Below are positions 352-16,101 of a DNA stretch of 64,000 nt, piece after piece. How positions within the stretch are numbered: position 1 is the first letter of the stretch; each line of letters begins with the position of its first letter. The notes under the pieces are model-generated. The model was not told the origin of the DNA. It did not search any database and saw only the letters and a program-made list of their open reading frames with translations. The position numbers were made by a program, and so were the translations under genes. The stretch is from the NCBI GenBank assembly GCA_038087875.1, contig CM075994.1, positions 4,218,001 through 4,282,000 of the forward strand, written 5' to 3'. Origin of the DNA: Malacoraja senta (taxonomy: Eukaryota).

Positions 352-378
352 ATTTACGACACGATGTTATTAGGTTAT
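352..378 (+). CDS. micro-exon 27 nt (DLRHDVIRL); duplicate at 51889-51915
   Basis: gcattttttag|ATTTACGA...AGGTTAT|gtatgg, phase 1-1. Confidence 0.5.
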
Positions 379-3300
379 GTATGGCTAAATAAATTATGAT
401 ATTTGGCAGTTTTATTTCAAATAGTTTATTTGTCCCCTCCCTGAATATATGTACATGGCAAATGAATAAACCCAATGAAGAACGAGTGTAGACTCTCCCA
501 CTGCCATCCAATACAATTGTGACAGTCGTATAAACCATTAAAATCATGTTCAATTCGGGTAATGGGAGGGGCGTGACTACTGACGAGAAACAACAGAATC
601 AGCACTATTATGTTTGGTGGTTACCAAGGTTGGTGAGGAATTGGGTCTCTTTGAGCGATTACTTCATCTCATCACTCTGCCAAACGTTCCTGTCTGCCAC
701 TAGATATGTTTAGAATAAAGTGGAGCATACCATTTTCCTCTGTGAGCACAGTTCCTAGAGCGAAAAGTTCTATATCATCCCAGATGAAATCCTACCTTCC
801 ATTGACAATCAATACACTATGTTAAATATCTGTTTGCACCATTACTGGTACAAGAAGACCAAATGGTCAATGTATAACATGTCCGGAATCAACGTACCTT
901 CTAAACGCGAGACTTTGGCATAGACGATAACTGTATAAGAATAACGTCACATTTACGTTTCTCTCCAAGAGAAACGCCATTTTGACTTCAAAATATATCA
1001 CAGTTTCTTCATTGTCCTTGCGCCTAAATATTGGAGTTTATTTATGTAGCAGCGAAAGACTTCACTCGAAAAAATGCTGGCCCTCCCTGCGACGCTCTCA
1101 TATTGCTAACTAAAATAAAATTGCGAGGTTCGAAATGTAATGCAAAATTTCACGATAACACGTATTTGGTACACCGCTGTAGTAAATGATGCCTGCAATC
1201 TCAGTGAATGGGAGGGATGGATGCAGACTATTGATGATCAATGTATGTTGTCACTGTTGACATAACATCTTCCCCTTCATATGTCTTCAGGTTTCGCAAC
1301 TCAAGAGGGTAAGCCTAAAATATTCCAAAGTACGTGTTGCGATCTATTTAATGTTATTATATCGCTCTGAATTAATTTGAAATTACCCTCGGATGTAATG
1401 AATAACTAGCTTTATTTTAATTAAATATTGAGCAGTGCCGATTTCTTCACCCTAATAAATGTAAACTAAATTTGACTTCAGAAAATAAATAAAGCCTGCT
1501 ATATTTGAATAGTTTGATTTTCACGCATTGAACTCTTGTCTATTGTTCAACCAACCTGTTTCAGAGTATGAATTACTGCGGCAACGACTGGGTAAACTGC
1601 GTCTTTGAGTCAATGTTTAATCTTCAAAGGAGGACATAAATCCGCGCATTCCAAAATCTAAATCATCGTTCAGTACATTTATCCCTAAATGATTCGCTGA
1701 TAATGAAGTAGAATTTTAAATAGCGTTATAATAGCAATCCACCGACACCCTACTTCAATTGCTCAATATATCATAATAAATGAAACATTGTTTTTTTTTT
1801 AAATTGAATAAATTTTTATCAGGATACATGTTTCATTTGCTGCTTAAGTTATACCTTGTCATCGAATGATTCGCCAGTTGCAACTTTACAAGAAATTGCA
1901 GGTAATCCGTTCACAATGGCAGATGTGTATTAAACACAGAATGTGATTTGATAATTACGATCCATGTGTATACTTTGGTTCTAGTTGTATTAGAATTTTG
2001 AGTGCCCACCAGCTAGATTTTGACATCAATTAAGAATACTCATTCTTCCAATCCTTCAATGCAACAGGCGACGTTCCTGTCCTGGTATTCGTGCGGAATC
2101 GCCTTCCTTCCTGTGCAGGAAGGAACTGCAGATGCTGATTTAAACCGAAGATTGACACAAAAAACTGGACTAACTCAGCGTGTCAGACAGCATCGCTGGA
2201 GAAAAGGAATAGATGACGGGTCTCGTCCTGAAACGTCACATATTAATTTTCTCCAGAGATGCTGTCTGACACGCTGAGTTACTCCATTTTTTTGTGTCTA
2301 TCTTCACCTTCCTTCCTGTTCCTTCAGATCCGGACCGCATGAAATATATTGATCGCCCGAATCTCCGGACCTAATAATAATAATAATAATAATAATAATA
2401 ATAATAATAATAATAATAATAATAATAATAATAATAATAATAATAATAATAACAAATAATGCATTGTATTTATGGGCGCCTTTCAGGACACTCAAGGACA
2501 CCTTACAGTTAAAACAAGTTTACAGACAAATTACAAGTTTACAACAAATTACAGAATTCGGAGAGAGAGCAGCGGCAGCTAATCGCGCCAGCGTTCACCC
2601 TCACTTCCGGCAGCCATTTTATCAATTTCTCATTTGCAACACACCAATAAAAATAAGACGCAACATTAAAGAAGAATTTAACATTAAACATAAAACATCC
2701 CCCACAATGGTTCCCACTGTAAGGGAAGGCAGCAAAGTCCAGTCCTCTTCCTCCTGTTCACCTCGTTGCTCGGGGCCTATTTGAGGCATCCATAGTCGCC
2801 GCAACGGCGGCCCGATGTATCAGGCCCTCTCGCCGGATGATGGAGCTCCGGCGTCGGGAGAACACTCTTCCGCGGCTTGGAGTGTCTGGAACGGCCGCTT
2901 GCTGCCAGAAACTGCGATCTCGGCGAGAGAACCCAGGCTCCGCGGTGTTCAAACCCAGCGCCTCCCGCGGCTGGACGCCCCGCAACGACAGCTCCGCGAT
3001 GTTGGAGCCGGCGGTCACAGCACTCCGGAGCTTACCACACGGCGACCCTCGGCAAGACATCGCCCGCTCCGCGCTGGTACTTCCGCGCTGCGCCGCAGCC
3101 GAAGCTGAAGTACTGGCCGGTCCCGGCAGGAAACGCCGCTCCAGTCCCGGTGGTAGGCCGCGAGGAAGGGGCGAAGATGGGGCTCGGAGGAAAGCCACAT
3201 CTCCGACCAGGTAGGGACCGAGAAAAAACAGTTTCCACCCCCCCCCCCGACACACACACACACACACACACACACACACACACACACACACACACACACA

Positions 3301-15300: not shown

Positions 15301-16101
15301 GGGCCACAGTTTAAGAATAAGGAGTAAGCCATTTAGAACGGAGACGAGGAAACACTTTTTTCTCACAGAGAGTGGTGAGTGAGGAATTCTCTGCCTCTTG
15401 AAATCATCCAGAGAACCTGCCTCCACAGCCCTCTGGCTGTGGAGGCAGTTCTCTGGATGATTTCAAGAGAGAGCTAGATAGGGCTCTTAAAAATTGTGGA
15501 GTCAGGGGATATGGGGATAAGGCAGGAACGGGGTACTGATTGGGGATGATCAGCCATGATCACATTGAATGGCGGTGCTGGCTCGAAGGGCCAAATGGCC
15601 TACTCCTGCACCTATTGTCCATTGTCTATTGTCTATATAAGCGTATATAATTATAATTATACAATCCACTGAAGTTGCCATCTCTGAAAGTAATAATACT
15701 GCTATAAAATATTCGACTCTGTAGAACATATTTTATTCACCGTCTTCATATTTCAGTTTTAAAAAATTTAATAATATACTAACATTCAAAAATAGTCAGC
15801 TATTGGACTCATATTGTTAACAACATTTTTGTGCAGAAAAAAATTGCACCAGAAAGATGCAGGTGAGCATATGCATATACGAATAACCAGGTGTATTGAT
15901 GCGTCCAACCTGGAATAATGTGAGAAATGAAAAGTAAGTGTTTTTACTTGCAATTGGCGTCGCGCAAAACATAATGAATTATGACACCGTCTTATGTTAG
16001 GCCTATAAGCATATTCGGTTCGGTTTGCCTATTTTAGGGAGTTATCGATATTTCTGCCTTTATTGTCATTGTAGAGCTAGCCGTACAGTGCAAAACGGAT
16101 G
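352..16101 (+). CDS. Micro-exon gene, copy A (3' part); 13 tiny phase-1 exons encoding a coiled-coil-like peptide
   Basis: AG/GT-bounded exons: 352-378, 1291-1308, 1565-1591, 1878-1901, 3863-3889, 6376-6411, 7438-7464, 8433-8456, 11635-11661, 11860-11886, 13073-13108, 15837-15862 (26 nt, one A short), 16075-16101. Spliced: [118 protein letters not shown], with no stops if the missing A is restored. Confidence 0.75.
1291..1308 (+). CDS. micro-exon 18 nt (xFATQE); duplicate at 52828-52845
   Basis: atgtcttcag|GTTTCGCAACTCAAGAGG|gtaagc. Confidence 0.75.
1565..1591 (+). CDS. micro-exon 27 nt (EYELLRQRL); duplicate at 53102-53128
   Basis: cctgtttcag|AGTATG...CGACTGG|gtaaac. Confidence 0.7.
1878..1901 (+). 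CDS. micro-exon 24 nt (VATLQEIA); duplicate at 53415-53438
   Basis: attcgccag|TTGCAAC...ATTGCAG|gtaatc. Confidence 0.55.
2115..2306. mobile_element. Penelope-derived fold-back element with 13-bp TSD (copy at about 53652-53843)
   Basis: aggaactgcagatgctg start, inverted arms, flanked by ccttccttcctgt at 2102-2114 and 2307-2319. Confidence 0.7.
2372..2452. repeat. (TAA)n microsatellite, likely the 3' tail of the adjacent minus-strand element
   Basis: About 27 taa units; copy at about 53908-53989. Confidence 0.95.
3250..3436. repeat. (CA)n microsatellite (copy at about 54783-54969)
   Basis: About 93 CA units. Confidence 0.98.
3863..3889 (+). CDS. micro-exon 27 nt (EMKKRNEIF); duplicate at 55396-55422
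   Basis: ctttattttcag|AAATGAAG...TTTTCA|gtaagc. Confidence 0.75.
4119..4312. mobile_element. Penelope-derived fold-back element with 12-bp TSD and degenerate hammerhead core (copy at about 55652-55845)
   Basis: TSD accttcgtctct at 4107-4118 and 4313-4324; central tTGAAGAagggtctcgacctGAAAtgtc. Confidence 0.7.
4466..5650 (+). mobile_element. CR1 LINE 3' fragment, degenerate (copy at about 55999-57182)
   Basis: [11 protein letters not shown] and [10 protein letters not shown] motifs, CR1 3'UTR and (ctattgt)n tail. Confidence 0.92.
6376..6411 (+). CDS. micro-exon 36 nt ([12 protein letters not shown]); duplicate at 57908-57943
   Basis: ttttccttgctag|ATATTGAC...GCCAAAG|gtaacg. Confidence 0.75.
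6498..7085 (-). mobile_element. Old CR1 3' fragment (copy at about 58030-58618)
   Basis: [12 protein letters not shown]-like translation and CR1 3'UTR on the minus strand. Confidence 0.75.
7438..7464 (+). CDS. micro-exon 27 nt (DDENLRITL); duplicate at 58971-58997
   Basis: ttcttgttcag|ATGATGAA...ACGCTGA|gtaaag. Confidence 0.7.
   Translation: MMKTCGSR
7855..8160 (+). mobile_element. tRNA-derived SINE, HE1/V-SINE-like (copy at about 59388-59693)
   Basis: ggcacagtggcgcagc..gctgcctcacagcgcca head, ccggtttcccccca core, (caat)n tail. Confidence 0.7.
8433..8456 (+). CDS. micro-exon 24 nt (MKLIFQLK); duplicate at 59966-59989
   Basis: ttctttatctag|TGAAATTA...CTTAAAG|gtaagc. Confidence 0.75.
10007..10860 (+). 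mobile_element. CR1 LINE 3' fragment (copy at about 61540-62393)
   Basis: [16 protein letters not shown]...[10 protein letters not shown]; (tatgtttc)n tail. Confidence 0.92.
10974..11380. mobile_element. PIF/Harbinger-type MITE (copy at 62507-62913)
   Basis: About 45-bp TIRs (gggcctgtcccac..gcatgcgactgcatgcggc..gcgcgacc); TAA TSD at 10971-10973 and 11381-11383; no transposase. Confidence 0.85.
11635..11661 (+). CDS. micro-exon 27 nt (ETQKVTRKF); duplicate at 63168-63194
   Basis: tttcattctag|AAACGC...AAATTTG|gtaagc. Confidence 0.75.
11860..11886 (+). CDS. micro-exon 27 nt (ELIAEDKFK); duplicate at 63393-63419
   Basis: tctctgattctag|AACTAA...TTCAAGG|gtatgg. Confidence 0.7.
13073..13108 (+). 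CDS. micro-exon 36 nt ([12 protein letters not shown])
   Basis: ttctaattgcag|AAAACC...CAGATGG|gtgaga. Confidence 0.75.
13530..13900 (-). mobile_element. Penelope-like element remnant
   Basis: acacaaaatgctgg..aactcagcggg terminal repeat plus gaattcaatgttta..ggttgg segment typical of the GIY-YIG end. Confidence 0.55.
13950..14665 (-). mobile_element. Rex1/Babar LINE RT fragment
   Basis: [56 protein letters not shown]. Confidence 0.9.
14747..15635 (+). mobile_element. CR1 LINE 3' fragment
   Basis: [25 protein letters not shown]1 3'UTR and tail. Confidence 0.9.
15837..15862 (+). CDS. micro-exon 26 nt as assembled (27 nt, EKKLHQKDA, if the A-run is one base short)
   Basis: tttttgtgcag|AAAAAAATTGCACCAGAAAGATGCAG|gtgagc. 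Confidence 0.65.
16075..16101 (+). CDS. micro-exon 27 nt (ELAVQCKTD)
   Basis: ttgtcattgtag|AGCTAG...ACGGATG|gtgagt. Confidence 0.75.

Follow-up and report, generated by a model that had tools for sequence, protein, structure and literature searches.

A candidate giant micro-exon gene with a predicted coiled-coil product in the skate Malacoraja senta

Introduction

In this work we ask whether a scatter of very short DNA segments, each enclosed by a potential AG acceptor and a potential GT donor, represents a gene in the skate Malacoraja senta, and what kind of protein such a gene would encode. The segments lie in a stretch of 64,000 nucleotides (GenBank assembly GCA_038087875.1, contig CM075994.1; G000:C18:4218001-4282000), referred to here as the window; coordinates above 64000 continue the same numbering along C18. 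A first-pass annotation, made by eye, had joined 13 segments at 352-16101 and four at 46994-49712 into a hidden gene of symmetric phase-1 micro-exons. It proposed a helical product of about 150 residues whose every exon could be skipped in frame, giving a length-tunable coiled coil from a family distinct from butyrophilin (BTN) and chicken BG genes. A further 190 kb downstream and 40 kb upstream were fetched for scanning. Our analyses suggest that this is very probably a real, spliced coding gene, and we consider it likely, with rather less assurance, that it encodes a coiled-coil rod whose exons are joined mainly in genomic order.

Results

The micro-exon pattern is not due to chance

Each of the 13 segments (as reconstructed by us; Table 1) and each of the other four was verified in the sequence: all lie between AG and GT and have an open phase-1 frame. 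Scored against a generic matrix, their splice sites are weak when taken one at a time, and the window alone holds only a modest excess of such segments; because the sites are weak, a formal test against chance was needed. In a blind scan with untrained splice matrices, AG..GT pairs of 12-48 nt were counted. On the plus strand of 44500-68536, 8 of 18 pairs have one of the four lengths noted in the first-pass annotation (18, 24, 27 or 36 nt), against 1.2 expected, and all eight are open in phase 1. Over the 145 kb past the window, which played no part in the original selection, these lengths account for 54 of 122 pairs against 8.2 expected (Poisson P ~4e-26), with 50 of the 54 open in phase 1. 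Corresponding counts are 6 of 94 on the minus strand (10.7 expected), 4 of 17 upstream (1.6 expected, P 0.08) and 5 of 44 after the next gap (4.7 expected). With thresholds of 1/1 across 44500-213000, the plus strand carries 35, 15 and 10 pairs of 27, 36 and 24 nt among 139, compared with 1, 2 and 3 among 102 on the minus strand; 56 of those 60 plus-strand pairs are open in phase 1 versus 30 and 31 in the other phases.

The pattern is not due to chance: the excess occurs out of sample, on one strand and in one phase, and is lost on the other strand and past the gap, as the first-pass annotation had anticipated in judging a chance set unlikely. The weak site scores and the modest excess in the window alone are what a collection of chance pairs picked by eye would predict, but that explanation is refuted by the blind scan, fits poorly with the clustering of paralogous exons described below, and retains a negligible probability.

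A repeated block and the order of the exons

A 51.36-kb (51,360-base) block stands on both sides of a 200-N gap in the window, its two copies 99.84% identical; with the gap it spans G000:C18:4183673-4286536. The 27 mismatches between the copies are evenly spread, while the 56 gap columns are concentrated at both ends of the overlap, and 46 of these 56 touch an identical base. At several places where the copies differ, contigs of run X2 have the copy-2 letters, among them the A that extends the 26-nt exon to 27 nt; at position 6140, run X1 has the copy-1 letter and run X2 the copy-2 letter. The block probably represents two haplotype contig ends joined untrimmed, that is, a false haplotype duplication, and the apparent presence of two gene copies is probably an assembly artefact; it may alternatively be a very recent true duplication.

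This arrangement revises the reading of the 352-16101 run. Its exons are real, and they are exons 5-17 of the truncated copy 1. The true order proceeds from 44327 to 46994 and on to 49712, then to 51889 (equivalent to 352) and onwards, so that the 13-exon set follows the four-exon set. The single 26-nt exception is likewise confined to copy 1 (Table 1).

Anatomy of the gene

Of 98 candidate exons collected by eye and by scan, three that leave introns of 38-48 nt were dropped and 95 phase-1 exons were kept: 57 of 27 nt, 23 of 36 nt, 11 of 24 nt, two of 18 nt, and one each of 30 and 33 nt (before the acceptor shift described below). None has 21 nt, the BG exon unit. Eighty-one of them follow micro-exon 14 beyond the window, up to G000:C18:4430991. 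The predicted gene extends on the plus strand from ~41.3 kb to 212991, over more than 170 kb, with a median intron of 1154 nt and a longest of 8550; between the end of its last curated exon and another 200-N gap lie 216 bases, and beyond that gap the signal ceases, leaving the 3' end unassembled. Acceptors are all CAG or TAG, and one donor is GC. Most candidates (83 of 98) end in G, and the residues at 97 junctions include 51 E, 13 D and 13 A. The sole junction stop vanishes when a NAGNAG acceptor 3 nt upstream is used, giving 950 open codons, and only 79 of 4753 ordered exon pairs would create a stop at their junction. The product would comprise at least 950 residues, about six times the original estimate. 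Within the gene body there is no second start exon and no exon-free stretch longer than 8.6 kb.

The predicted start exon (Table 1) is hydrophilic (best 17-residue mean 0.58) and encodes no signal peptide. Scans of open reading frames (ORFs) and large exons in the 40 kb upstream and the gene body, directed at immunoglobulin (Ig) and signal-peptide exons, returned only retroelement or non-Ig frames. From 41.3 kb to the first micro-exon or later, no symmetric exon offers a credible hydrophobic stretch of 17 residues to serve as a transmembrane (TM) segment, and no RING, B-box or B30.2 exon was found upstream of or inside the assembled gene. The previously noted lack of Ig, TM and B30.2 exons thus holds for the assembled part, and a B30.2 exon may lie in the 3' end, which is lost in the gap. 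The putative promoter stretch contains what we take to be a GC box and CRE-like and YY1-like motifs.

Several segments around the curated exons may bear on expression or on the end of the gene. An upstream ATG at 44330, in another frame, is open through the start exon and stops in micro-exon 1, a possible regulatory upstream ORF. Besides the 23-nt segment of Table 1, frame-breaking 23-nt AG..GT segments lie at L005:1309-1331 and, downstream of a paralogue's exon, at L026:5916-5938 and may be decayed or truncating exons. A 159-nt exon-like segment with strong splice sites, a length divisible by three and an in-frame stop (133689-133847; L009:9689-9847) is a possible alternative end, and open phase-1 candidates of 132 nt (L018:7603-7734) and 63/45 nt (L005:4331-4393), not counted here, would code non-helical linkers. 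Neither the 159-nt nor the 132-nt segment has a paralogue in the genome or a match in Pfam.

Table 1. Positions of the predicted gene and associated features on the window scale
Feature	Position	Strand	Remark
End of copy 1 of the 51.36-kb block	1..17004		Probable false haplotype duplication
Copy-1 versions of micro-exons 5-14	352..11886	+	First ten segments of the first-pass annotation; identical to copy 2
23-nt AG..GT segment	12971..12993	+	Frame-breaking: decayed exon, truncating exon or chance; omitted from the first-pass annotation
Micro-exon 15, copy 1	13073..13108	+	36 nt
Micro-exon 16, copy 1	15837..15862	+	26 nt, one base being lost by error in an A run; copy 2 and run X2 have 27 nt
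Micro-exon 17, copy 1	16075..16101	+	27 nt
Scaffold gap between copies	17005..17204		200 N
Copy 2 of the block	17205..64000		Continues to 68536; has the 5' end of the gene, correctly ordered
Putative promoter and non-coding first exon	41330..41511	+	CpG observed/expected ~1; donor GTAAGA at 41512; predicted from sequence
Candidate 21-nt exon	43193..43213	+	Upstream of the ATG exon; uncertain, uncounted; from trained scan
Predicted start exon, 132 nt	44327..44458	+	Likely start ATG at 44341, good Kozak; top-scoring large exon of the region; codes 39 non-helical residues; phase-1 end
Micro-exon 1	46994..47029	+	36 nt
Micro-exon 2	47326..47352	+	27 nt
Micro-exon 3	48591..48614	+	24 nt
Micro-exon 4	49689..49712	+	24 nt
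Micro-exon 5	51889..51915	+	27 nt; = 352-378
Micro-exon 6	52828..52845	+	18 nt; = 1291-1308
Micro-exon 7	53102..53128	+	27 nt; = 1565-1591
Micro-exon 8	53415..53438	+	24 nt; = 1878-1901
Micro-exon 9	55396..55422	+	27 nt; = 3863-3889
Micro-exon 10	57908..57943	+	36 nt; = 6376-6411
Micro-exon 11	58971..58997	+	27 nt; = 7438-7464
Micro-exon 12	59966..59989	+	24 nt; = 8433-8456
Micro-exon 13	63168..63194	+	27 nt; = 11635-11661
Micro-exon 14	63393..63419	+	27 nt; = 11860-11886

Heptad register across exon junctions

The spliced peptide is rich in E (15.4%), L (14.6%) and K (11.9%), poor in P (0.4%), devoid of W, and carries a net charge of -30. Its designation as a coiled coil is based on this composition and on periodicity: the hydrophobic period peaks at 3.5 residues with a power of 0.663, against 0.338+-0.043 for residue shuffles and 0.433+-0.046 for shuffles of exon order (0/300 reach it), the latter null also disrupting the tandem modules and so inflating the contrast. 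A blind-picked chain of 56 segments, 48 of them curated exons, gave 0.558 against 0.399+-0.05 for shuffled order (0/500). Hydrophobic residues occupy positions 1, 4, 8 and 11 of the 36-nt exons and position 3 of the 27-nt exons, generating an a-d-a-d-a pattern over 21 residues, and the working module is a 36+27-nt pair, equal to three heptads. The 95 exons and the period of 3.5 are in keeping with the earlier proposal of symmetric phase-1 exons encoding an E/L/K-rich coiled coil.

Skipping a single exon lowers the local power from 0.59 to 0.37, with a fall at 61 of 85 junctions (P 4e-6), while skipping a 21-residue pair hardly lowers it (0.75 to 0.69; 37 cases). The notion that every exon can be skipped consequently holds for the reading frame but not for the register. 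Nor can free skipping be upheld as the purpose of the design: exons of nine, 12 and eight residues are not whole heptads and it is the genomic order that keeps the register. Since order carries the register and single skips degrade it, in-order splicing appears likelier than free skipping of the schistosome kind.

Duplication and constraint of the modules

Six tandem modules, each a 36-nt and a 27-nt exon duplicated with their introns, lie at 135-155 kb. Their 12 exons contain no gaps, against 16 and 14 gaps in the flanking intron, and the splice columns are invariant across all six (8/8). Invariant columns make up 22/36 and 12/27 in the exons versus 44/225 and 35/216 in the introns, and exon identity is 0.81 (36-nt) and 0.74 (27-nt) compared with 0.62-0.72 in the flanks. 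Across the gene, a relative within the gene at 60% or more exists for 40 of the 95 exons, against a null mean of 5.5 (maximum 13). In the six modules, a small sample, exon length, reading frame and splice sites persist although the residues change, as would be seen in a rod with little sequence constraint or under diversifying pressure.

Paralogous loci

The whole genome (1.94 Gb) was scanned with three exon-shaped patterns, which yielded 9, 17 and 18 matches (controls 3, 9 and 7). C18, which makes up 0.6% of the genome, received 8, 7 and 12 of these, and the interval 15.9-18.4 Mb of C5 received 1, 4 and 2. Grouped by strand, the matches mark this locus and four others on C18 (3.80-3.91 +, 4.83-4.92 -, 5.43-5.53 - and 6.01-6.08 + Mb), a lone match at 3.03 Mb, and three or four loci within the C5 interval. 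Reading 40 kb from three other loci revealed more 24/27/36-nt phase-1 exons on the same strand, their ends not being reached. The gene thus seems to belong to a family of roughly eight or nine loci on C18 and C5, and this clustering of look-alike exons agrees with the suggestion of a new family rather than a BTN/BG orthologue.

One paralogue contains three identical 27-nt exons 3.9 kb apart (G000:C18:6006847, 6010777 and 6014727), which points to very recent module duplication. Downstream of a paralogue's 36-nt exon, a duplicated 99-nt exon-like segment with a stop (L026:5725-5823, 7854-7952), followed by a 23-nt segment, is a possible 3' end.

Searches for relatives

The start-exon peptide (43 aa) had no match among proteins of 77-2000 aa, a search that longer models, or ones without this exon, would escape; among 1.84 billion representatives it found two unrelated repeat proteins only, and it has no paralogue in the genome and nothing in Pfam or the ESM Atlas. 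As a positive control, the same database gave skate, ray and shark RefSeq proteins for the neighbouring B30.2 exon. An alignment of 22 peptides from 36-nt exons, a weak profile of 11 columns, retrieved nothing at E<=10 among 7998 candidates. An 'uncharacterized' RefSeq model of the gene may exist, these searches being weak for long or partial models. Literature searches listed no description of a gene of this kind from cartilaginous fish. The sequence beside the 3' gap had matches elsewhere in repeats only.

Genomic neighbourhood

The last coding exon of nurim (NRM; L023:546-863, +; Atlas score 0.91) is located 11 kb past the last micro-exon, across a gap, on a 22-kb contig between two gaps. 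Also past the gap are the first coding exon of ribosomal protein S5 (RPS5; L025:2650-2760, -) and a degenerate RING-B-box TRIM gene (L032:1740-2330 and 9067-9599, +), whose RING exon has frameshifts and whose B30.2 exon is intact. The latter lies 128 kb past the gene and shares 98% identity with a Leucoraja erinacea protein and ~80% with other proteins from skates, in agreement with the placement of this hidden phase-1 micro-exon gene in a cartilaginous fish. Its PRY exon was considered as the 3' end of the gene and rejected, as it belongs to this separate TRIM behind RPS5.

On C18 we counted 26 of the 150 PRY matches listed (150 of 686 candidates scored). Many more PRY exons occur on C18 at 6.5-11.6 Mb. 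NRM is a gene of the mammalian major histocompatibility complex (MHC) class I region (PMC4753418), and BTNs are described on the MHC class I chromosome of three elasmobranchs (PMC12841164); the main text of a shark MHC paper (PMC10751288) contains no mention of NRM, RPS5, butyrophilin, coiled or TRIM. None of the 88 MHC class I domain matches in the genome is on C18, and gaps lie within the stretch that joins NRM to the micro-exon gene. Nearly all 88 are on small unplaced contigs, indicating a large class I expansion.

One paralogue exon is identical at 7 of 9 residues to the post-TM tail of the skate BTN P0047 (shuffle p 0.0015, against 0.03-0.26 for four other BTNs). The DNA pattern of this exon matched the paralogue only, with no BTN exon among its genome matches, and 122 fetched proteins (120 of them B30.2-bearing) share at most 2 of 432 exon 5-mers, which is background. 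We regard the link to BTN/BG as a lead only.

Mobile elements are frequent in the region. The window contains an L1-like element (25850-29050) with a 607-bp flanking duplication (25225-25831 / 29435-30039), a near-intact CR1-like long interspersed element (LINE) on the minus strand (34400-38560), which has nearby copies at 97% identity, and a 91-bp tandem array (38832-39447); the L1-like and CR1-like family names are our assumption from the ORF text. Two remnants of Gypsy-like long terminal repeat (LTR) retroelements lie in introns on opposite strands (L006:250-2900; L006:9000-L007:3120).

Discussion

We propose that transcription would begin at ~41.3 kb on the plus strand, with a non-coding first exon ahead of the 132-nt start exon. 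At least 95 symmetric phase-1 exons would follow, spliced as a rule in the order of the genome across introns of ~1 kb. Each 36-nt exon would contribute a-d-a-d, after which the 27-nt exon would add one more a and a d that is mostly lysine; as the exon lengths are not whole heptads, the a/d stripe would run across the junctions. The gene may have grown by tandem duplication of exon-plus-intron modules, phase symmetry allowing gains without loss of frame and selection retaining modules that fit the register. The product would be an acidic, alpha-helical rod of the cytosol with 950 or more residues, ~135 nm long if it forms one continuous two-stranded coiled coil, and most likely a dimeric scaffold or spacer, resembling the chicken BG cytoplasmic tail without an N-terminal membrane anchor; any binding head would be at the unassembled C-terminus. 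Its length would be tuned mainly in evolution by the number of modules, and perhaps through the skipping of register-neutral pairs or through exons that carry a stop. As to its role, a link to immunity, suggested by the neighbourhood and by fast change, seems somewhat likelier than a structural one in the germ line.

Several observations weigh against this reading. The 3' end is unassembled, and protein collections that include skate proteomes yielded no relative from another species. The curated list was picked by eye, with three of 98 candidates dropped and one acceptor shifted, and frame-breaking or stop-bearing exon-like segments inside (23 nt twice; 159 nt) would permit more than one gene or an earlier end. 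In the modules dN/dS is 0.65 (36-nt) and 1.14 (27-nt), with variable columns at all codon positions, indicating little purifying selection on residues. With regard to the register, the spacing between 36-nt exons is a multiple of seven in only 8 of 22 cases, which would mean that the coil stutters or that some exons were overlooked; pair skips of other lengths, which lie in low-signal parts, did not lower the power (0.467 to 0.486; 48 cases); and the contrast with shuffled exon order is inflated, as noted above.

Three other explanations accept that the segments are or once were exons. One treats the locus as a real gene that generates variation in the manner of schistosome micro-exon genes (MEGs), using combinatorial skipping of single exons for many isoforms. 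Symmetry in phase 1 of all exons, the G that ends most of them, the scarcity of junction stops, the weak splice sites, the dN/dS near 1 in the 27-nt module exons and the multigene family would all suit such a generator, but exon lengths that are not heptad multiples, a register held by order and degraded by single skips, and the lack of the signal peptide that is conserved in MEGs (bioRxiv 10.1101/2023.06.21.545858) make it unlikely. We attach an equally low probability to the view that the gene is a derived member of the BTN/BG/TRIM-B30.2 group, its exons being an amplified heptad tail of BTN type and its missing 3' end coding for a head of the B30.2 or another type. Here the PRY matches listed on C18, the nearby nurim exon and the 7/9 resemblance to P0047 have to be set against the absence of Ig, TM, RING and B-box exons upstream or inside, the assignment of the nearest listed plus-strand PRY exon to the separate TRIM behind RPS5, the failure of the tail-exon pattern to match any BTN exon, the background level of 5-mer sharing and the absence of MHC class I matches from C18.

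Slightly less probable still is a decaying pseudogene, or two or three smaller tandem genes merged into one. Decay or merging would account for the frame-breaking 23-nt segments, the stop in the 159-nt segment, heavy LINE/LTR insertion, dN/dS near 1, the failure to find an annotated protein, and a paralogue at C18:6.08 Mb that has no further coiled-coil exon in the 9 kb after its 36-nt exon. However, 95 exons are free of internal stops and indels, the splice sites of the 12 module exons are intact while their flanks have many gaps, and the gene body contains neither a second start exon nor an exon desert of more than 8.6 kb.

Returning to the ordered coiled-coil rod, we tentatively propose, judging the chance of this complete picture to be slightly below even, an undescribed skate family of at least eight giant genes, each of more than 100 kb, with ~100 constitutively spliced exons of 24-36 nt, encoding membrane-free rods lengthened by 36+27-nt modules and lying among TRIM/B30.2 genes beside nurim. 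If so, the family would be a cartilaginous-fish counterpart of BG tails freed from the receptor. Micro-exons of vertebrates are usually viewed as scattered, regulated cassettes, and this would be the most extreme vertebrate case in which to test how long micro-exon runs are included in order by the spliceosome; because ~95 or more micro-exons of non-heptad length would need near-complete inclusion in order, the gene would offer a direct test of constitutive micro-exon definition. It would further illustrate a route to very long rods through intron-mediated module duplication, and suggests that a multigene family occupying more than 1 Mb of sequence is absent from skate annotations, as aligners and gene finders lose exons of 9-12 codons.

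Comparison with known systems

Vertebrate genes with many small symmetric phase-1 exons include those for tropoelastin, triadin, FACIT and membrane collagens, and CD23, whose stalk exons of 63 nt encode three heptads and equal the sum of the 36+27 module. These classes are characterised by Gly-X-Y repeats, Gly/Pro-rich sequence, KEKE with a TM segment, or a lectin head, and none matches the composition or exon count found here.

Schistosome MEGs have 10-20 exons, nearly all of them very short and lying between introns of 0.1-5 kb, a signal peptide, products of up to 189 residues and alternatively spliced central exons (bioRxiv 10.1101/2023.06.21.545858). The skate gene resembles them in a coding region made mostly of short exons divisible by three, in belonging to a multigene family and in being hard to annotate, with no homology implied. 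It differs in its ~95 or more exons, its lack of a signal peptide, a predicted product of 950 or more residues (five times longer), its order-dependent register and its host, MEGs being restricted to Schistosomatidae.

In BTNs the heptads are few and B30.2 forms the end of the protein (PMC5938342). Like the skate gene, BTN and TRIM-B30.2 genes encode a heptad stretch, in their case short and placed before B30.2; the skate gene shares its chromosome with a large B30.2 cluster and shows the single nine-residue resemblance. It departs from both in that the search for Ig, TM, RING, B-box and B30.2 exons at the gene gave none, and in sequence sharing at background.

The closest parallel is the chicken BG tail, in which 27-37 exons per gene, of 21 nt (a few of 18 or 24), encode one heptad each, the true heptad crosses from one exon into the next, duplication changes the number of exons, and truncating splice events occur (PMC5938342). 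The skate gene diverges in having exons of 27, 36 and 24 nt, at least 95 of them, with a two-exon module of three heptads, and in that the signal peptide, IgV and TM exons which precede the BG tail do not occur in its assembled part. The two have in common a long run of tiny split-codon exons, a predicted alpha-helical coiled coil, a heptad that continues across junctions and membership of a multigene family, and the skate loci probably constitute a new family of BG-tail-like rod proteins.

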